A DNA stretch of 64,000 nt, from assembly GCA_030648205.1 (NCBI GenBank), contig JAUSIH010000046.1, positions 67,147 to 131,146 on the forward strand. The letters run 5' to 3'. This document shows, in pieces, positions 3,849 to 43,133 of the stretch (position 1 is its first letter; each line of letters opens with the position of its first letter). The translations under genes were made by a program, and so were the position numbers. This stretch comes from Dehalococcoidia bacterium. Its GTDB lineage: Bacteria > Chloroflexota > Dehalococcoidia > JAUSIH01. The notes beneath the pieces are model-generated. The model had not been told where the DNA came from. It ran no database searches and was given only the letters and a program-made list of their open reading frames with translations.

Positions 3849-6071
3849 ATGCGTTATCCGCTGGGACGCGCGGGAAGGCCGTTCCTTGCCGCCCTCGCTA
3901 TCGTCGCGGTCGCCCTCGTCGGGCTGACGCCGCGCTCCGCGAGTGCGCTCCCCGCCGCGCTCATCGCGTTCGTGTCCTCCCGCGACGGCAACAGCGAAAT
4001 CTACGTTGCACGGGCCGATGGCGCGGGAGCGACCCGCCTGACATCCAACCCCGGCTGGGACTGGCAGCCCGCGTGGTCGCCGGACGGCGCGCGCCTCGCG
4101 TTCACCTCCCGCGTGGACGGCAACACCGACATTTACACCGTTCGCGCCTCTGATTTGGGCATGACGCGCCTGACCACGGACTCCGCCGATGACCGTGATC
4201 CCGCGTGGTCGCCGGATGGCAAGCGCATTGTGTTTGTCTCGCGACGCGACGGCAATCCTGAGATATACGTCATGAACACGGACGGCTCGGGGCAGACGCG
4301 CCTGACGAACAACCCTGCCTGGGACTGGAACCCCGTCTGGTCTCCCGACGGCCAGCGCCTCGCTTTTATGTCGTACCGCGACAACAGTTATGAGATTTAC
4401 GTGATGCGAGCGGACGGGACGGGGTTGGCCCGCGTCACGACCAACCCGGGTGGGCACCTTGCGCCGGCGTGGTCGCCGGATGGAGCGCGCATCGCCTACG
4501 TGACGGAGAAAGGGCGAACCGCCAGCCTGTGGGTGGTCAACGTGACCACACTGGAGGCGCGGATGCTGGCGTCGCCGGGGGAGAAGGTCAAGCAGGCGGC
4601 ATGGTCTCCGGACGGGAAGCTCCTGGCGATCACCGCGCTCGAAGGATGTCCCGGGACCGAGTGCTACGATGCCCTGTACCTTGTCAACGACGATGGCTCC
4701 GGTCTCCGGTATCTGAACATGTTTCCCCCTGCCGACGGCGAGCTGGCCTGGTCGCCCGACGGCCTCTGGCTCGCGTACACCACGTCGGGTGGCGCGGCAC
4801 AGGCATACCAGGTCTGGATTCGAGAGATAGGCGGGTCCGGCCAGTCCGTCCCGTTCCTGGACGGAGAGTCACCGGTCTGGCAGCCAGCCGCGGGCGCTCT
4901 GTGGCCGACTCCCACGCCGACTCCGGTCGCGCCAACTCCCACCGCCACGCCGACGCCGACTCCTATGCCCACGCCCGCCGGTGCGACACCTACTCCAACC
5001 GCCACTCCCGGACGCAGGACGGTGGGCCTGACGTACCTGTTCTGGCCCATGTACCGCCGCGACGCTCAGCATACGGCGCGGCACCTGTATTTGGGGCCTC
5101 AGGCCCCCGCGCTCAAGTGGGCCTTCGGCACGTTGAACGTTATCCAGTCCTCGCCAGCCATAGGGCCGGACGGAACCATCTACGTCGGCTCCAACGACAA
5201 CAGGCTCTACGCCCTCAGTCCCGGCGGCGTCCTCAAGTGGAGCTTCCCCACGGGGAACTGGGTATGGTCATCCCCGGCCATCGGGGTTGATGGCACTGTC
5301 TACGTCGGGTCTTTCGACAAAAAGCTCTACGCCGTCGCGTCCAACGGCCTCTTGAGATGGAGCTTCCCCACGGGGGATATCGTGTACTCTTCTCCGGCCA
5401 TCGGCGCGGACGGCACCGTCTACGTAGGGTCGAACGACCACAACCTCTACGCTGTCAACCCGAACGGCTCCCTCAAGTGGAGCTTCGGCACCGGCAGCAT
5501 CATCCACTCATCGCCCGCCATCGGATTCGACGGCGCCATCTACGTCGGCTCTTTCGACAAGAAGCTGTATGCCGTCAATGCGGACGGCTCCCTCAAGTGG
5601 AGCTTTACGACGGGCGGCGCCATCCAGTCGTCTCCCACCATTGGAGAGGGGGGCGCCGTGTACGTGGGGTCCACGGACGGAAATCTCTACGCCATCAACG
5701 CGGACGGCTCCCTAAAGTGGAGTTTTCCGGTCGGCGCCGCTATCCAGTCTTCGCCTGCCATCGGAGCGGACGGCAACATCTACGTGGGGGCGGATGACCG
5801 TAACCTCTACGCGGTCAGCTCGAGCGGTGCGCTCAATTGGAGCCTCTCCGTCGGCAGTATCATCTCCGCGTCCCCCGCCGTTGGAGCGGACGGCACCATC
5901 TACGTCCACTCCATTGACCACAAGCTCTACGCCGTGCGGCCGGACGGCTCTCTCAGATGGGGCTTCACAGCAGGAGCGGGGATTGTAACCGTGTCCTCTC
6001 CGGCGATCGGCGCCGACAACATCCTGTACGTGGGGTCGGGGGACGGAAAGCTCTACGCCATCGGGCCGTAG
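3849..6071 (+). CDS. Secreted multi-propeller protein: TolB-like PD40 repeats, Pro/Thr-rich linker, then about 9 PQQ-like beta-propeller repeats
   Basis: Signal peptide (LAALAIVAVALVGL...ASA). Repeated DGxxxIYV...PAWSPDG units (PD40). Linker PTPTPTPVAPTPTATPTPTPMPTP. Repeated LYAV...G.LKWSF.TG..I.SSPAIG.DGT(I/V)YVGS units (PQQ/BamB-like). AGGGAGGG RBS precedes the ATG. Confidence 0.8.
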   Translation: MRYPLGRAGRPFLAALAIVAVALVGLTPRSASALPAALIAFVSSRDGNSEIYVARADGAGATRLTSNPGWDWQPAWSPDGARLAFTSRVDGNTDIYTVRASDLGMTRLTTDSADDRDPAWSPDGKRIVFVSRRDGNPEIYVMNTDGSGQTRLTNNPAWDWNPVWSPDGQRLAFMSYRDNSYEIYVMRADGTGLARVTTNPGGHLAPAWSPDGARIAYVTEKGRTASLWVVNVTTLEARMLASPGEKVKQAAWSPDGKLLAITALEGCPGTECYDALYLVNDDGSGLRYLNMFPPADGELAWSPDGLWLAYTTSGGAAQAYQVWIREIGGSGQSVPFLDGESPVWQPAAGALWPTPTPTPVAPTPTATPTPTPMPTPAGATPTPTATPGRRTVGLTYLFWPMYRRDAQHTARHLYLGPQAPALKWAFGTLNVIQSSPAIGPDGTIYVGSNDNRLYALSPGGVLKWSFPTGNWVWSSPAIGVDGTVYVGSFDKKLYAVASNGLLRWSFPTGDIVYSSPAIGADGTVYVGSNDHNLYAVNPNGSLKWSFGTGSIIHSSPAIGFDGAIYVGSFDKKLYAVNADGSLKWSFTTGGAIQSSPTIGEGGAVYVGSTDGNLYAINADGSLKWSFPVGAAIQSSPAIGADGNIYVGADDRNLYAVSSSGALNWSLSVGSIISASPAVGADGTIYVHSIDHKLYAVRPDGSLRWGFTAGAGIVTVSSPAIGADNILYVGSGDGKLYAIGP

Positions 6072-8805: not shown

Positions 8806-8880
8806 GCCCCTGTAGCTCAGCGGATAGAGTACCGGCCTCCGAAGCCGGGTGCGGGCGTTCGAGTCGCCCCAGGGGTACCA
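8806..8880 (+). tRNA. tRNA-Arg (anticodon CCG)
   Basis: Hand-folded cloverleaf: acceptor stem GCCCCTG/CAGGGGT (with G1:U72 wobble); D-arm GCTC..GAGT; anticodon stem CCGGC/GCCGG with loop CTCCGAA (anticodon CCG); T-arm GGGCG-TTCGAGT-CGCCC; encoded CCA end. Confidence 0.9.
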
Positions 8881-11103: not shown

Positions 11104-12045
11104 ATGGTCAAGACGCTACGCGAGATGACGGAGCAGGCGGAGGGCCTCTCCTCCGGACACTCTTTGTGCGCTGGGTGCGCGGAGTCCATCATCGTCCGGC
11201 AGGTTCTGCACGCCGTCGGCCAGCCGGTGGTCGTCGCGTGCGCCACGGGCTGCCTGGAGATCGCCACGAGCCGCTTTCCCACCACCGCGTGGAATGTTCC
11301 CTGGATACACAGCGCCTTCGAGAACGCCGCGTCCACCATCAGCGGCGTCGAGGCGGCGTACCGCGCGCTGGTGCGCAAGGGGCGCATGCCTGAAAAGAAC
11401 ATCAAGTTCGTCGCCTTCGGAGGCGACGGCGCGACGTATGACATCGGCCTGCAGTGGCTGAGCGGAGCGCTGGAGCGGGGGCACCGCTTCATCTACATCT
11501 GCCTCAACAATGAAGGCTACATGAACACGGGCATTCAGCGGAGCGGCGCCACCATCCAGGGGACGTGGACGACGACCACGCCCGCGGGCAAGGTGGTGCC
11601 CGGCAAACCCGAATGGCGCAAGGACCTCACCGCCATCATCGCCGCGCACCACATCCCGTACGTGGCGCAGGCGGCCGCCCATGCGTGGAAGGACCTGGAG
11701 ACGAAGGTGGAGAAGGCGGCTGCGGTGGACGGCCCCGCGTTCATCAACGTTCTCTCACCGTGCACCCGCGGCTGGCGCTACGACCCCAGCAAGACGATGG
11801 AGATTTCCAAGCTGGCGGTCGAGACGCGCCTCTGGCCCCTTTTTGAGGTGGAGAACGGCGTCTGGCGGCTCACCTACAAGTCCACGGCCCCCAAGCCGGT
11901 CACCGACTGGCTCAAGTCGCAGGACCGGTTCGGCCACCTGCTGCGCCCGGAGAACGAGCACGTGGTGGAGTCCATTCAGCGCAACGTTGACAGGGAGTGG
12001 GCGTGGCTCCAGCGCCAGTGCAGCCTGGCCACCGTTACTGCTTAG
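11104..12045 (+). CDS. porB: 2-oxoacid:ferredoxin oxidoreductase beta subunit (TPP-binding)
   Basis: CAGCAESIIVRQ, GDGATYDIG TPP motif; 313 aa. Confidence 0.9.
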   Translation: MVKTLREMTEQAEGLSSGHSLCAGCAESIIVRQVLHAVGQPVVVACATGCLEIATSRFPTTAWNVPWIHSAFENAASTISGVEAAYRALVRKGRMPEKNIKFVAFGGDGATYDIGLQWLSGALERGHRFIYICLNNEGYMNTGIQRSGATIQGTWTTTTPAGKVVPGKPEWRKDLTAIIAAHHIPYVAQAAAHAWKDLETKVEKAAAVDGPAFINVLSPCTRGWRYDPSKTMEISKLAVETRLWPLFEVENGVWRLTYKSTAPKPVTDWLKSQDRFGHLLRPENEHVVESIQRNVDREWAWLQRQCSLATVTA

Positions 12046-12145
12046 GCGGTACGTTCTGTCTATAGTGGGGCCTCTCTTTCATCCCAACGGATGAAATAAC
12101 CGGACTCCAGAAAGCGCGGCTTTTGCCGTCTGGTTGATTGAAATG

Positions 12146-13198
12146 TTAGGTATTATCGGAGATTGGCGGTTTCTTTAAGCGCAGCCGTTCGAGATTCCAT
12201 TCTCTAGCAAAGAACCAGTTGTAGTGTTCAGTAATGCGCCGGTACACGCGAGTGATGGCCGCATCTAGGTCGCAGAAAAGACCGTCTATTCGCTCGTCTG
12301 TCATGGTCGGGTCAAGAGCCGCTCTGTGAATAAACTCGTGACGGCTGAGTACAAGAGACTCAAGCGACTCAAAAAGTGACCGAGATCGCCGATGATAAGG
12401 TTTTCGTAGCGCACCTGCGATATCGAGCTTCGTGTCGAGTGCCTCGAAGTGGCGGCAGACAGCCGATAATCTTTGAAATGACAAGGTCTCGGAGATTTGT
12501 TCTTCGACGGTGGATTGGCCATTTGATACAGCGAGCAGCTGTTCTCCTTGAAGGTGAATACTCTTTAGTACCGCGTCTTTTCGCGCCGAGTACCGCAGAA
12601 GAGCGATAAATGTAGATTTGAAGTAATCCTCTATGGCCGCGACAAGGAACAGCACAAGAGTATTATTGGCAAGTGTTCTCGGATCCATATTTGGGAGAAA
12701 CTCTATACCCTTCTTCCACCCGTCGGCGCTGCGGAGAGGATGGTTAGGAAAGTCGCGTGTTTCGTGATAGGTATGGGCCATAAAAAGATTGTGGCCGAAG
12801 CGATTGAATGCAAGGTAGCACCCCGACGCTGGAGCAGGAGGCGGTTCGCCTCTAGGCCTCAAATATCTCCCACGTCCTTCATCTGTTGCGAACTCGCCTC
12901 CAAACCGCTTTCGAATACCGGAAATGGTATTGTTCTGATGATTGAGGTCGAAATAGCTTCGGCGTATCGGCGTGTGAGTTTCAACTGCAAGCCTTTCTTC
13001 GTCAACACGGTAGATTGAAAGCCCGACCCCTGTCCATGATCGGTAGTCGGTGGCGTCAAACCACCGATACTCTTCGAATTGACCGTATTCCTCAGATTTC
13101 AGTGCACCGGACTTCGCATAGCCCAACAGCAGCACAAACTCACGAACGTCCTGAATACGCGTGCCTGGTGCGAGAATACTTTCGGATGAGTAGCTCAT
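12146..13198 (-). CDS. Hypothetical protein on a low-GC island; C-terminal helical region carries an HEPN-like Rx4H motif (possible Abi/defense protein)
   Basis: 350-aa ORF filling a roughly 1.2-kb stretch of markedly lower GC (about 48% vs about 67% in the flanks). C-terminal LVLSRHEFIHRAAL fits Rx4-6H. No detectable similarity to neighbouring genes. Confidence 0.6.
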   Translation of the reverse strand: MSYSSESILAPGTRIQDVREFVLLLGYAKSGALKSEEYGQFEEYRWFDATDYRSWTGVGLSIYRVDEERLAVETHTPIRRSYFDLNHQNNTISGIRKRFGGEFATDEGRGRYLRPRGEPPPAPASGCYLAFNRFGHNLFMAHTYHETRDFPNHPLRSADGWKKGIEFLPNMDPRTLANNTLVLFLVAAIEDYFKSTFIALLRYSARKDAVLKSIHLQGEQLLAVSNGQSTVEEQISETLSFQRLSAVCRHFEALDTKLDIAGALRKPYHRRSRSLFESLESLVLSRHEFIHRAALDPTMTDERIDGLFCDLDAAITRVYRRITEHYNWFFAREWNLERLRLKKPPISDNT

Positions 13199-13238
13199 GA
13201 ATTCGTTACTTATTGCGACCTACCGACTCGGATGATTT

Positions 13239-13260
13239 GGAAATCACACTGGTGATTTCC
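13239..13260. promoter_or_regulatory. Perfect 9-bp inverted repeat (GGAAATCAC-actg-GTGATTTCC) upstream of the island gene
   Basis: Palindrome in the 150-bp gap between the cofC stop and the start of the low-GC gene. Candidate operator or terminator hairpin. Confidence 0.25.
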
Positions 13261-13350
13261 TGCTGTGCCCCGAACGCCGCCATTCTAAGGCGTCCGTCAA
13301 CTCCGTGTCCACCGCCACGGTCGTGGAGCGCAGCGGGCGAACGAGAGCCG

Positions 13351-14055
13351 CTACTGCTTAGCGCGCAGGGAGAAGGGCAGCTCCGCCAGTCTCTTGGCCA
13401 GGCCAAGGCGCTCCAGCGCGGCGTAGGCCCGCGTTGTCCGCCTCGGTCGCAACGACGGGACGTTCTCATACGCCACGAACAGCCCCAGGTCGTCAGGCGT
13501 GTCCACGTCCAGCTCCAGCCGGAAATTGCGCACTGTCCTGACGGGTATGCCGCACGCGGCAGCCTCTTCCTGGTGCTCGCGGAAGCTGGTCGCGCCGAAG
13601 TGCGACCCGATGGCGTCCGGCGGGCGCCGGAGCACGGCGTTGGACCCCGTGCCGTCCCGCGAGGACACCAGCACCAGCCCCGGCTGGCCTGAGTCGGCGG
13701 CCAGCACTGACTGGACATCCTCGGGCCGGACAAGCGGCGCGTCGCCCGGGATCACCAGCATGGCCGGAATGCTCCGCTGAACGCACTGCCGCGCCGCGAA
13801 CTCCACCGCCGCGCTCTCGCCGCTGTTGCGCTCCTCCCGCCAGATCTGCGCCCCGACTGCCTGGGCCAGTGCCTCCGCCTCAGGGTCGCGGGTGATGACG
13901 GCGATGCCGTCGAGCGCCGGCGTGTTCGCCAGCGCGTCCAGCACGTCGTGCAGCATGGCGACGGCCAGTGCATGCCGCTCGTCGGGCGACAGCACGTCGG
14001 ACAGGCGGTTCTTTGCGCCCGCCAGGTCCTTGACCGGCACCACGGCCCAGATCAT
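13351..14055 (-). CDS. cofC: 2-phospho-L-lactate guanylyltransferase (F420 biosynthesis)
   Basis: MIWAVVPVKDLAGAKNRL N-terminus typical of CofC/FbiD; overlaps cofD by 4 nt. Confidence 0.85.
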   Translation of the reverse strand: MIWAVVPVKDLAGAKNRLSDVLSPDERHALAVAMLHDVLDALANTPALDGIAVITRDPEAEALAQAVGAQIWREERNSGESAAVEFAARQCVQRSIPAMLVIPGDAPLVRPEDVQSVLAADSGQPGLVLVSSRDGTGSNAVLRRPPDAIGSHFGATSFREHQEEAAACGIPVRTVRNFRLELDVDTPDDLGLFVAYENVPSLRPRRTTRAYAALERLGLAKRLAELPFSLRAKQ

Positions 14056-14990
14056 GTGTCTCGCGCCTGGGCCAGCAGGCCCAGCACCGCGTCCGCGACG
14101 CGCGCCGCGTCCTCCGGCGTGGGCATCATGGTGTCCGTGATGGCGGTGCGCACGCCCAACTCCGCGATGCGCTCTTCCAGGGCGGCGTCGCGCTGGTCAA
14201 TGACGAACCCGTCCAGGAAGTCGCTGTACAGGTGCGCGACCCCGTACGCCGACGGCTCGACGCCCTGCGCCGTCAGCATGGGCACCGAGGGGCCTTTCAC
14301 CGCCGCGCCCGCCACGATGGGGCTGACTCCCACCACCGGCGCGTCCGTCAGCCGCAGCGCTTCCCGGACGCCCGGCACGCTCAGGATGGGGCCGATGCTG
14401 ATGATCGGGTTGCTGGGGCAGACGACGATTCCCTGCGCGGCAAGGATGGCCTCGATGACGCTGGGGCCGGCGTGCGCGCCCTCGATGCCGTGCACATAGA
14501 CGCGCTGGATGGCGCCCTCGGCGTGGTCGCGGGCCAGGAACTCCTGGAGGTGCATGTCGCCGCGCTCCGTCACCACGCGCGTCTCGACCGGGCTGTCGGT
14601 CATGGGCAGGACGCGGACGGCGAGGCCCCACGCCTCGCACAGCGCGAAGGTGACCTCGGAGAGGGCATGGCCGCGGCCCAGCAGCATGGTCCTGTGGATG
14701 TGCGTGGCGAAGTCGCTGTCGCCGAGAGCGAACCACTTCTGGTGCCCCAGGCGGCCCAGGGCGCGCAGGACGTGAAAGGTGTCGCCCTTCAGTCCGTAGC
14801 CCTTCTCGTCGTCCACGGCGCCCGCCAGGGTGTAGATGATCGTGTCAATGTCGGGAGAGACGTGCAGGCCGTGGAAGACGGCGTCGTCGCCGGTGTTGAC
14901 GATGACCACCAGGTCTTCCGCCTTGACGCGGCGGAGCAGGCCCCGCAGGAACCGGGCGGCGCCCACGCCGCCCGCAAGTGCAACGAGCAT
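14052..14990 (-). CDS. cofD: LPPG:FO 2-phospho-L-lactate transferase
   Basis: CofD/UPF0052 signature (ALAGGVGAARFLRGL...VVIVNTGDDAVFHGLHVSPDIDTIIYTLAG); 312 aa. Confidence 0.9.
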   Translation of the reverse strand: MLVALAGGVGAARFLRGLLRRVKAEDLVVIVNTGDDAVFHGLHVSPDIDTIIYTLAGAVDDEKGYGLKGDTFHVLRALGRLGHQKWFALGDSDFATHIHRTMLLGRGHALSEVTFALCEAWGLAVRVLPMTDSPVETRVVTERGDMHLQEFLARDHAEGAIQRVYVHGIEGAHAGPSVIEAILAAQGIVVCPSNPIISIGPILSVPGVREALRLTDAPVVGVSPIVAGAAVKGPSVPMLTAQGVEPSAYGVAHLYSDFLDGFVIDQRDAALEERIAELGVRTAITDTMMPTPEDAARVADAVLGLLAQARDT

Positions 14991-15005
14991 GGCTTGAGAG
15001 ACTTT

Positions 15006-15476
15006 CTAGCGCCCCGATCCATCGGGGGCCAGGCGGATTTTGCTGTTGTCCCAGGTGCGCACCTTGTCCGGCGTCACCTTCAAGATGACCCAGGGGCCCG
15101 CGTAGTGGTTTCTGATTCGCTCAGGGAGGAGATGTTCGGGGCGCTTCAGTCCGGCGTACTTGCGGTTGTAGGCGGCGTCAAAGCATGCTATCTGCTCAGG
15201 GTCTTCAATGACGCTGCACCGTCCCTGGATGGCCACCCCCTTCAGTTCCTTCCACGCGTCTCCGGCTTCTACGACAACGCAGACGCGCGGTTCCCTCAGG
15301 GCGTTGCGCACTTTGGCGCCGGACTTCAGCGAGTGCATGTGAATGCAGCCGTCCTGGTAGATAAACCACATGGGGACGGAGACGGGGGAGCCGTCCTTAC
15401 GCAGGGTGGTCAGCACAAGGGTCTTCTTCTGCTGAAAGAATGCCTCTATCTCCTGGGAGTCCAGTGTAATCGCCAT
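15006..15476 (-). CDS. PPOX-class (pyridoxamine 5'-phosphate oxidase-like) probable F420-dependent oxidoreductase
   Basis: 156 aa split-barrel FMN/F420-binding family protein adjacent to cofCD. Confidence 0.7.
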   Translation of the reverse strand: MAITLDSQEIEAFFQQKKTLVLTTLRKDGSPVSVPMWFIYQDGCIHMHSLKSGAKVRNALREPRVCVVVEAGDAWKELKGVAIQGRCSVIEDPEQIACFDAAYNRKYAGLKRPEHLLPERIRNHYAGPWVILKVTPDKVRTWDNSKIRLAPDGSGR

Positions 15477-15583
15477 GCGCGCCTCCGAATGGTTTTATAC
15501 GAGAGGGAGTGACGCACGGTTGCCCGTGGTGTCCCGTCTGTTATTATAGATGGGCAGTCCGCCAGCTACAAGGAGGCGTATTC

Positions 15584-16231
15584 ATGCTTGCCTTTCTCGG
15601 AGGGACCGGCCCGGAGGGTCTGGGACTGGCCGCCCGCTTTGCGCTCGCCGGCTACGAGGTCGTTATCGGCTCGCGCTCGGAGGAGCGCGCGCGGGAGGCG
15701 GCAGAGAAGGTGCGGAAGCTCGTCCCGAAAGCCAAGGTGCGCGGCGACGGCAACGAGGGGGCGGCCCGCAAGGGCGACATCGTGTTCATCTGTGTCCCCT
15801 TTGAGGGGCATAAGGCCTTGCTGGAGTCCCTGCGCGGTGAGTTGAAGTACAAGCTGGTCATTGACGTGGCTGTGCCGCTCGCTTTCGAGAAGGGCAAGGG
15901 CGCCTGCGCCGTCCCCGTCCCGGAAGGTTCCGCCGCCGAGCAGGCCCAGGCGCTGCTGCCGCGCGCCCGAGTCATAGGCGCGTTCCACAACCTTTCGGCC
16001 AAAGAGCTGCAAGACGTGGGGCATCCCATCCCGTGCGACGTGCTGGTGTGCGGCGACGACGAGGAGTCAAAGAAACAGGTGATGGCGATGGCGCAGCAGA
16101 TGACGGGCATCCGCGCGGTGGACGCCGGACGTCTGTCTAGCGCGCGGTACGTCGAGAACTTGACCGTCATGCTCCTCTCCATCAACCGGATATACAAGGC
16201 CCAGGCGGGCATCAAGATTGTAGGTATCTAA
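15584..16231 (+). CDS. fno: NADPH-dependent F420 reductase (F420H2:NADP+ oxidoreductase)
   Basis: MLAFLGGTGPEGLGLAARFALAGYEVVIGSRS Rossmann motif typical of Fno/NpdG. Start set at ATG 15584 after an AGGAGG RBS. Confidence 0.85.
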   Translation: MLAFLGGTGPEGLGLAARFALAGYEVVIGSRSEERAREAAEKVRKLVPKAKVRGDGNEGAARKGDIVFICVPFEGHKALLESLRGELKYKLVIDVAVPLAFEKGKGACAVPVPEGSAAEQAQALLPRARVIGAFHNLSAKELQDVGHPIPCDVLVCGDDEESKKQVMAMAQQMTGIRAVDAGRLSSARYVENLTVMLLSINRIYKAQAGIKIVGI

Positions 16232-41618: not shown

Positions 41619-42983
41619 CTAGGGGTATGTGAAGCGCAGGGCACTGGTTTTCTCCGTGGATGTGATGGTCGCGAGGAACTCCGCGCCCTGCTGCTGAATG
41701 GTGAAGCCGTCCGCGAGCGAGAAGCTGATGTCTATGGCGCGGCTCACCATCTGGCGTGCTCCAATCGTGCCGACGGCGATGGTCTCGGAGTCCTTGCCGT
41801 TGACCGCTATGCGCTTGCCCCGCGAGGATACTTCCAGCTTGACGCTCACGTTGTGCGCGTCTGAATCGCCGGTGTTGGTCATCTCGGCGGTCATGCGACG
41901 GCTTGTCAGGCCCGTCTCCTCCACCTTGGCGATGCGGAGCTGAAAGTCCACTGGCCGGGCTGCCGAGACTGGCGTGGTGGTTGGCACGGATGGTGGAATA
42001 GCTGGCGTGGCGGTCGGCGCGGACGGAGGGAGCGTCGGCGTAGCGCCTACGGGCGGACCTTCGAGCGGGACCGCGATGGTCACGGGTGAAGGGGAATAGT
42101 AGTCACGGAGCGTCCACGTGCGCGCCTTGGGGCTATCAGCGGGGAATGTGTCCAGCCGCGTCTGCCCGCGCATGATGTCTATCATGGTCACGCGCGACGT
42201 CGTCTCGCCGCTCAACCCCTCCAGTTTGTAGCTATAGCTGTACATGCCGAGGACGGCGGGAACGAAGGCCACGTCCAGCACGACGGCGACCGTGGCCGAC
42301 TGGCCCGCTGGCACGTCCAGACGCGCATTGCCGCTGACGCGGTCGTCGCCGCGGGCGGCGGTCGCCGTGACCGACCCTTCCACCCGGCCGTTTGTTTTGT
42401 TGGAAAGCTCCAGTCGCCAGTCCTCCGTGTAGTTGATCAAACCGCGTGGGCTGAAGAACTCCCAGTGGGCATTTCTGCCCTTGTCCGCTACCCCCATGAC
42501 GCTGGTGTCGGCGAGCGGCGTTATAGCCCCGCTTTCCTGGGCGCGCTGGACGGCGCGGATGTCCGGGGACTCCACCGCGCCGCTGATGGGCAGGTCGGCG
42601 CGGGGCGTCTGCGGGTCGTTGCTCTCCACGGTGAGGATGCCGGACAGGGATGCGGCGGCGCTCGTGTCCACGGTGAAGGGGAGCGTGACGCGGTTGCCGG
42701 GGCCGATGGTCAGCGGCAGGCTGGCTGTCACGCGCAGGGCGGGCAGAGACGAGGGGAGCGAGCGTATCACGAGATTGGCGTTTCCTCCATTGCCTATCTC
42801 CAGCGAGCCGTTCACGACGGCCAGTTGGGGAACGGCGCCCAGCGCCAGTCCGCTCCTGGGGACGAGAAGACGCGGCGCGGCGGCCTGGGCCGGCGGCGCG
42901 GCGTCCACGAGCGCGGGACGGAAGCCGCCGACAATCAGAGCAAGTGTCAGCATGGCGGCGAGGGTCAACGCCTGGCGTTTCAT
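41619..42983 (-). CDS. Secreted hypothetical protein with a signal peptide and a Pro/Thr-rich segment
   Basis: MKRQALTLAAMLTLALIVGG signal peptide; PTLPPSAPTATPAIPPSVPTTTP linker; 454 aa; no assigned family. Confidence 0.55.
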   Translation of the reverse strand: MKRQALTLAAMLTLALIVGGFRPALVDAAPPAQAAAPRLLVPRSGLALGAVPQLAVVNGSLEIGNGGNANLVIRSLPSSLPALRVTASLPLTIGPGNRVTLPFTVDTSAAASLSGILTVESNDPQTPRADLPISGAVESPDIRAVQRAQESGAITPLADTSVMGVADKGRNAHWEFFSPRGLINYTEDWRLELSNKTNGRVEGSVTATAARGDDRVSGNARLDVPAGQSATVAVVLDVAFVPAVLGMYSYSYKLEGLSGETTSRVTMIDIMRGQTRLDTFPADSPKARTWTLRDYYSPSPVTIAVPLEGPPVGATPTLPPSAPTATPAIPPSVPTTTPVSAARPVDFQLRIAKVEETGLTSRRMTAEMTNTGDSDAHNVSVKLEVSSRGKRIAVNGKDSETIAVGTIGARQMVSRAIDISFSLADGFTIQQQGAEFLATITSTEKTSALRFTYP

Positions 42984-43133
42984 GGTCTGCTCCTATACTC
43001 ACTGTTCATCGGCGCTTGCCGGCTAAAACGCATCGTATTCCGTTGGGAGATGATTTAGTGTGTCATCTTGACGCGGTACCGTCAATAGCGCATCATCGTA
43101 TGGACTAAGGATTGTGTTCCTTTTCACGTGTTG

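Follow-up and report, generated by a model that had tools for sequence, protein, structure and literature searches.

The 64-kb stretch of DNA analyzed here (the window) comes from a Dehalococcoidia bacterium (contig JAUSIH010000046.1) and carries, between the convergent genes porB and cofC, a single open reading frame (ORF) of foreign composition. It is read from an ATG start at 12146-13198 on the minus strand and encodes a 350-aa protein; the identical protein of the source metagenome-assembled genome (MAG) is annotated as hypothetical. On one side of this island lie porA (POR_N/PFOR_II) and porB (TPP_enzyme_C, the TPP-binding POR beta subunit) of the POR operon, and on the other the F420 biosynthesis genes cofC and cofD. 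An earlier note on this DNA, made from the sequence alone, had reported a 350-aa ORF between porB and cofC, and both its coordinates and the identities of the flanking genes are confirmed. The GC content of the ORF is 0.505, against 0.663 for porB, 0.709 for cofC and 0.651 for the window, and its third-position GC (GC3) is 0.513, against 0.90 in both flanking genes. Across positions 12000-13300 the GC profile drops to 0.47-0.55 between flanks of 0.65-0.73 (0.501 for the variable segment 12089-13265), and the island is the lowest-GC kilobase of the window, ~5 standard deviations under the mean of 1-kb windows (standard deviation 0.029). The foreign low-GC island described in the earlier note is therefore real, although the ORF measures 50.5% GC where the note quoted ~48%.

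An AlphaFold model of the protein (pLDDT 89.8, pTM 0.85) consists of an N-terminal TBP-like domain and a C-terminal domain that is an all-alpha up-and-down helical bundle, the fold of HEPN domains (Table 1). The C-terminal domain carries the motif LVLSRHEFIHRAAL, in which R286 and H291 form the Rx4H catalytic signature of HEPN RNases. Both residues are invariant across an alignment of 37 sequences with 37-79% identity to the query, and R286 is followed by H or N in most of them, as in the classical HEPN signature. Further invariant positions are G126, C127, N179, E190, L221, E232, F241, Q242, F251 and P267, together with Y52, T74, R80, T91, G101, D106 and G108 in the N-terminal domain. The HEPN assignment, made earlier from the spacing of the motif, is thus supported by both fold and conservation. 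Structural matches listed for the model include 4nqf (9.9), TT1696 (9.7), the HEPN toxins 7ae2, 8xdj and 5yep (9.4-9.5), sacsin HEPN (9.2), Csm6 (8.3) and HepS (7.1), while a profile search of PDB sequences returned nothing significant.

The protein belongs to a family of 128 homologs (clusters at 90% identity), every one annotated as hypothetical. An exhaustive profile search of 1.8 billion representatives (E<=1e-3) gathered 475 family clusters at 50% identity, of which 207 have E-values under 1e-30; almost every member has a length of 320-360 aa and matches end to end, so that the architecture is near-constant. Homologs consisting of the N-terminal domain only were considered as possible other fusions and turned out to be mis-called starts or frameshifted fragments. 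The family is uncharacterized, and its HEPN domain is of the RiboL-PSP/AbiD-AbiF-related branch, with the invariant R-x4-H and a conserved Asn/Glu pair. Its distribution is patchy over more than 10 phyla: one Syntrophales MAG and one Nitrospira MAG hold copies 78-79% identical to the island protein, and more distant ones occur in Dormibacterota, Acidobacteriota, Chlorobi, Verrucomicrobia, Beta- and Alphaproteobacteria, Bdellovibrionales and Ignavibacteria. The GC content of the homologs is below that of their flanks in most hosts, and no homolog was found on 72,556 plasmids. A distant but full-length member (22-27% identical, hhalign probability 99.7%) is encoded by the P2-like Peduoviridae prophage Escherichia phage 500465-2 as gp34 and keeps the Rx4H motif as RHGIVH. 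This prophage homolog, with the accessions YP_009949290.1 and WP_216350934.1, is carried once each by 65 of 5426 complete E. coli genomes, where it is a lone gene between ogr and gpD of P2-like prophages; its annotation is hypothetical throughout, and it has no PADLOC match. Its position is not one of the defense hotspots described for P2 phages: it lies apart from the gpA-gpQ hotspot (PMC9122126), and neither PMC9122126 nor PMC13586616 discusses the ogr-D site.

The site itself is polymorphic. When PorB was used to scan metagenome contigs for sister loci, 80 PorB loci were recovered, among which four share the convergent layout of the window, with PorB 97% identical and CofC 87-88% identical, and all four lack the HEPN gene and carry other cargo (Table 1, L022-L025). 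In total, the slot holds four unrelated low-GC cargoes in five backbones, with no sequence common between cargoes. Two of the four are recognizable defense systems, namely a type II restriction-modification pair and a PDC-S50 candidate. The HEAT-repeat protein of a third has a weak match to the PADLOC model HEAT-ARM_XIII, and with its 187-aa neighbor it may constitute an uncharacterized two-gene system. The backbones remain homologous to ~42 nt beyond the porB stop, ending after ...CATCCCAAC, and on the other side to ~80 nt beyond the cofC stop. The presence/absence polymorphism in relatives that the earlier note had proposed as a check is thereby found, and the horizontal acquisition it had proposed from composition is borne out by the unrelated cargoes in one slot and by the close copies in Syntrophales and Nitrospira.

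At the 3' end of the gene, overlapping its stop codon, lies an attC-like recombination site, and this site, like the cassette nature of the island, had been missed in the earlier note. Its R'' box ACCTAAC, which includes the TAA stop of the ORF, is followed by a 5-nt spacer, its R' box reads GTTGGGA, and its L-box consists of AAT(C)AACCAGAC / GTCCGGTTATT with a single bulged base, so that the layout R''-spacer-L''(bulge)...L'-spacer-R' is complete and in canonical orientation relative to the ORF. The G|TT of R' coincides exactly with the junction where backbone homology resumes; the TT of the R' core is, in minus-strand reading, also the beginning of the conserved backbone downstream of porB. 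At the nucleotide level, the copies in Syntrophales (L008) and Nitrospira (L009) are homologous to that of the window over the ORF, ~25-35 nt upstream and ~65 nt downstream, and no further. Within the L-box, the window and L008 differ by compensatory changes (AAT/ATT versus ATT/AAT, and AACC/GGTT versus CAGC/GCTG).

A strict attC architecture scanner, run with shuffled controls, returned comparable sites at other family members. In L008 it gave 4 hits versus 0.4 expected, with four sites on the plus strand, and in L014 5 hits versus 0 expected, with three sites; one site lies directly downstream of the homolog in L004, and in L006 sites lie on both sides of the homolog, which is therefore a single-gene cassette. 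A relaxed version of the scan was discarded because shuffled sequence matched in 10-75% of trials. A covariance model was then trained on five candidate attC sites, with the window site and the L008 homolog excluded. It recovered the L008 3' site (20.5 bits, E 0.0095 in 0.5 Mb) and a new site upstream of a TIR cassette in L006 (E 1e-5). Weak matches were obtained upstream of the L009 copy (E 0.6) and at the end of the PDC-S50 cargo (L023:4980-5068; also in L022; E 0.33), the latter sharing its strand and its backbone junction with the window cassette. With filters off, positions 12080-12153 of the window were the top local match over the full length of the model (14.0 bits, E 0.004 in a 1.6-kb region).

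Table 1. Features of the island, its slot and related loci. Positions without a locus prefix are those of the window.
Feature	Position	Strand	Description or basis
Two-domain protein gene (TBP-like N-terminal domain + HEPN domain)	12146..13198	-	ORF, homologs, AlphaFold model
N-terminal domain, residues 1-118	12845..13198	-	beta-alpha-beta4-alpha-beta, TBP-like/KA1-type alpha+beta sandwich
HEPN domain, residues ~122-326, helical insert ~207-265	12221..12835	-	invariant N179, E190, F241, Q242, R286, H291
Rx4H codons R286-H-E-F-I-H291	12326..12343	-	read directly in the sequence
attC-like recombination site	12082..12151	-	strict architecture scanner and covariance model
Putative mobile unit (cassette), ~1136 nt	12088..13223	-	25-nt leader + ORF + attC-like site; nucleotide homology with L008, L009
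Left 14-nt direct repeat CCGTTACTGCTTAG	12032..12045	+	last codons and stop of porB; repeat family D5
Right 14-nt direct repeat CCGCTACTGCTTAG	13348..13361	+	stop codon of cofC (minus strand)
Conserved non-coding backbone downstream of porB	12046..12087		shared by the four sister loci as far as ...CAAC(G), then divergence
Conserved non-coding backbone downstream of cofC	13269..13350		kept in L022, L023, L024
Orphan 45-nt segment between backbone and cassette	13224..13268		common neither to sister-strain backbones nor to other cassette copies
Slot cargo, window	12146..13198	-	HEPN gene
Slot cargo, L022 and L023	L023:5061-5957, same in L022	-	298-aa SLFN_AlbA_2 protein, PADLOC candidate PDC-S50, E 5e-72
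Slot cargo, L024	L024:5053-7490	-	BsuBI/PstI restriction endonuclease + Eco57I-type methyltransferase, type II restriction-modification pair
Slot cargo, L025	L025:2840-4486 and 4603-5166	+	548-aa HEAT-repeat protein + 187-aa protein without family; opposite orientation
P2-like prophage homolog	L102:4959-5981; L103:6001-7023		L102, Escherichia phage 500465-2 gp34

Taken together, we consider it fairly probable that the island is a horizontally acquired single-gene cassette of the integron type (SALIN-like), placed in a strain-variable slot and encoding a two-domain HEPN endoRNase with the role of a toxin or an effector of abortive infection. With its predicted HEPN RNase domain, the product most likely serves, on its own, as a toxin or anti-phage effector. 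SALINs are isolated cassettes inserted by IntI at genomic attG sites (bioRxiv 10.1101/2022.09.11.507474), and the island, with its single attC-like site and no integrase motif seen in a crude search of the 64 kb, would have arisen by such an IntI-mediated insertion. Integron cassettes encode phage-defense systems (bioRxiv 10.1101/2024.07.02.601719), and cassettes and SALINs alike are documented as carriers of defense genes (bioRxiv 10.1101/2024.07.02.601719; 10.1101/2022.09.11.507474). The island shares with SALINs, CALINs and defense cassettes (BRiCs; attC x attG) a single promoterless-looking ORF, a short leader and a 3' attC-like hairpin, and its gene has relatives within attC arrays, with TIR (ThsB-like) cassettes beside them. 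It differs from SALINs and CALINs in its leader sequence, in a slot that also takes cargo lacking attC and is bracketed by a 14-nt direct repeat, and in its host, a member of the Dehalococcoidia.

As to mechanism, we propose that the protein would dimerize via its HEPN domain, the two copies of which would together make up a composite endoRNase site that needs no metal. The TBP-like N-terminal domain would anchor the RNA substrate and/or hold the HEPN domain at rest, as TBP-like domains do in RnlA, until some trigger released the autoinhibited HEPN domain; the resulting cleavage of cellular or phage RNA could then stop growth and appear as abortive-infection-type defense or as toxin behavior. 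A close parallel is provided by RnlA and LsoA, the RNase LS anti-phage HEPN toxins, which likewise carry TBP-like domains N-terminal to HEPN. RnlA has the layout TBP1-TBP2-HEPN, in which contacts between TBP2 and HEPN stabilize an inactive resting state, and its catalysis needs canonical HEPN dimerization via RX4-6H plus a conserved Glu (PMC8266594). Given this layout and resting state, the island protein on paper acts like a shortened RnlA without being a sequence member of the RnlA family: it has one TBP-like domain instead of two, its HEPN domain is of another branch, and no RnlA match was obtained with Pfam, NCBIfam or PADLOC even at E<=10. No RnlB/LsoB- or Dmd-type antitoxin gene adjoins the island gene, and the homolog loci have no conserved neighbor.

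The Ribo L-PSP-HEPN family is predicted to be active, is distantly related to AbiD/AbiF and occurs fused to endoRNase L-PSP or in ParB operons (Anantharaman et al. 2013, PMC3710099). No other Pfam family is matched by the island protein, which differs from Ribo L-PSP-HEPN by its own N-terminal TBP-like domain and a ~60-residue helical insert; the island protein has no L-PSP domain, and no homolog locus has a ParB neighbor. The abortive-infection proteins AbiD/AbiF (Abi_2), AbiJ, AbiU2 and AbiV resemble the island protein in being HEPN proteins that stand alone and have about the same length; their N-terminal domains vary, their genes reside on mobile DNA, and they are presumed to be RNases under autoinhibition. 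In contrast to these, the island protein matches neither Abi_2 nor any PADLOC model, and as far as sequence searches go its N-terminal domain is unrelated to those of AbiJ. The toxins of type II or VII HEPN/MNT pairs (SO_3166, HI0074, 7ae2), finally, are ~130-aa single-domain proteins that are always paired with MNT, whereas the island protein is neither of that size and architecture nor so paired.

The neighborhoods of the homologs vary. The island contains no partner ORF, and across 18 homolog-carrying loci no neighbor is conserved, each locus having different ones, in agreement with the earlier description of a stand-alone gene lacking an antitoxin-like partner. TIR-domain genes lie directly upstream of two homologs and match ThsB-like and PDC-S66 models; as a conserved partner they were rejected, since the two differ in architecture and are unrelated beyond the TIR domain, the only element they have in common (27% identity). 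In one of these loci (L006:5079-7093), a TIR_2 gene and then the HEPN-family gene form consecutive single-gene cassettes, each flanked by high-scoring, closely similar attC-like sites, and the same type of attC is found in L014, as expected for a sedentary chromosomal integron array. The gene remains what it was first called, a candidate for defense or abortive infection, to which the restriction-modification and PDC-S50 alleles of the slot, the TIR cassettes and the prophage homolog now add context.

Several observations weigh against our interpretation. On the side of the protein, the match to HEPN_RiboL-PSP (PF18735; residues 176-297, from helix 1 to the Rx4H helix; E 0.006) scores 16.9 bits, under the gathering threshold of 28.4. 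The PF18735 profile is matched by 29 of the 37 aligned relatives (E<=0.1, best E 2e-6), a few of which carry a precomputed match, and for these two reasons the island protein is regarded as a divergent relative of the family and not as a clear member. Scans with PADLOC (PADLOC-DB v2), NCBIfam and PHROGs gave zero matches; of the Pfam and PADLOC searches recommended at the outset, the first thus yielded a weak match and the second none. No characterized homolog ties the family to RNase activity, toxicity or defense. On the side of the cassette, the leader begins with GTAGGT and not with TTRRRY (TTAGGC in L008). The covariance search with default filters missed the window site, which is why the locus was rescored with filters off, and its 14 bits correspond to a modest E of ~0.2 if scaled to the whole window; moreover, the minimum-energy fold of the site takes an alternative stem. 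No attC was detected in the HEAT-repeat and restriction-modification cargoes (L025 and L024), so integron recombination is not the sole filler of the slot, and the more distant family members (L011-L021) lack attC as well. A crude regular-expression check of six-frame translations of the 64 kb found no tyrosine-recombinase signature motif, and no empty porB-cofC site was seen among the 80 PorB loci, cofC being adjacent in the four closest only.

The attC-less cargoes, the integrase not found by that crude motif search, and the modest score and alternative fold of the window site would also suit an entry by other means, that is, homologous recombination through porB/cofC after uptake of sister-strain DNA, or illegitimate insertion, with the 3' hairpin being a terminator or a product of chance. 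So would the 14-nt direct repeat CCGYTACTGCTTAG at both edges of the slot, the copies of which are 13/14 identical at a spacing of 1316 and are present in every sister strain independent of cargo. This repeat is not accounted for by integron recombination and may be the scar of an ancestral tail-to-tail overlap of porB and cofC (…CCGYTACTGCTTAGCGCGC…), duplicated when the slot was first opened. Against such an entry stand the full attC layout in canonical orientation to the ORF, its homology to a site within the array of four in L008, and the high-scoring sites that bound the relatives in L006 and L014; the hairpin also lacks a T-tract, and a terminator scan called none on that strand. The junction at G|TT, where the PDC-S50 cargo with its own attC-like site ends as well, likewise speaks for integron recombination. 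We therefore regard a non-integron entry as possible but rather unlikely; exchange through flanking homology is in any case compatible with an original capture by integrase, and the two are not mutually exclusive.

A different function is conceivable for the same cassette, namely that of an addiction toxin that stabilizes cassette arrays or islands in the manner of a toxin-antitoxin (TA) system, the antidote being the N-terminal domain itself or an unrecognized small RNA or peptide. Chromosomal integron arrays hold TA cassettes, the toxins of HEPN/MNT TA pairs (7ae2, 8xdj, 5yep) are among the closest structural matches, and TA genes stand beside some homologs: MazE-like and PIN/Phd genes, together with Mrr, surround the one in L007, and a MazE gene adjoins the one in L006. 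However, a single-gene cassette with no conserved adjacent ORF in 18 loci and a constant architecture lacking an MNT partner does not resemble a TA pair, and co-location with restriction-modification, PDC-S50 and TIR genes, together with the accessory position in the prophage, favors defense. An addiction role is accordingly judged improbable. Least probable of the alternatives is a non-toxic RNA-processing or RNA-binding protein (housekeeping, regulatory or catalytically silent) with no part in conflict, which would fit the RNA-maturation and non-catalytic roles of some HEPN domains (PMC3710099) and the housekeeping surroundings of the homologs in L003, L011, L013 and L016, but not the invariance of R and H along with N179 and E190, the foreign GC, the patchy spread over more than 10 phyla, in which unrelated lineages hold near-identical copies, the lack of the gene in sister strains or the rarity of the family (475 clusters in 1.8 billion representatives).

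If the preferred reading of a cassette-borne HEPN effector holds, it would add to the HEPN RNase effectors an unrecognized, widely dispersed single-gene family that escapes all current defense databases, and it would offer, with one TBP-like and one HEPN domain, a simple model for the silencing of a solitary toxin. It would also provide a concrete case of integron-type cassettes bringing candidate immune genes into Chloroflexota, and of a slot between two core genes that swaps restriction-modification, PDC-S50-like and HEPN cargo among near-identical strains. Because a full-length homolog resides in a P2-like E. coli prophage, the hypothesis is directly testable in a standard host. A bolder proposal, which we consider unlikely as a whole, is that the family represents a new, self-contained type of single-protein abortive infection in which a TBP-like sensor or anchor silences the HEPN RNase until phage RNA or protein is met, and which spreads over more than 10 phyla by two separate vehicles, the integron cassette and, as an accessory gene, the P2 prophage; porB-cofC would then be a dedicated docking site for defense genes, with the 14-nt repeat preserving both gene ends and the exchange only partly explained by integrons.

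Some minor features of the slot and the window complete the description. The backbone downstream of cofC contains a sigma70-like promoter match that faces the cassette (13311-13282, minus strand, TGGACA-18-TAGAAT, 10/12), a consensus match only from a scan that gave 2 sites versus 0.7 expected; it could drive any minus-strand cassette docked in the slot. Between this backbone and the cassette, the orphan segment (fold z-score -2.8) was considered as a degenerate attC, for which its 15-nt spacer to an R'-like box exceeds the fitting length. As to the 9-bp inverted repeat, the perfect pair GGAAATCAC/GTGATTTCC (13239-13247 / 13252-13260), to which the earlier note had drawn attention as part of the promoter region, does exist but lies in this segment, outside the mobile unit, and is statistically ordinary, with 5 distinct perfect 9-bp inverted repeats in the window versus ~3 in shuffles. 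The slot falls exactly between two metabolic clusters, the POR operon and, directly beside it, a cluster for F420 biosynthesis and use (13351-16231) comprising cofC, cofD, a PNPOx-like protein and an F420-dependent NADP oxidoreductase. Immediately upstream of the POR operon, and not adjacent to the island, is a tRNA gene (8806-8877, plus strand; Rfam RF00005, 63 bits). The second-lowest GC of the window (~0.59-0.60 versus a mean of 0.65) is found at 42600-43100, within or next to a 454-aa ORF (41619-42983, minus strand).

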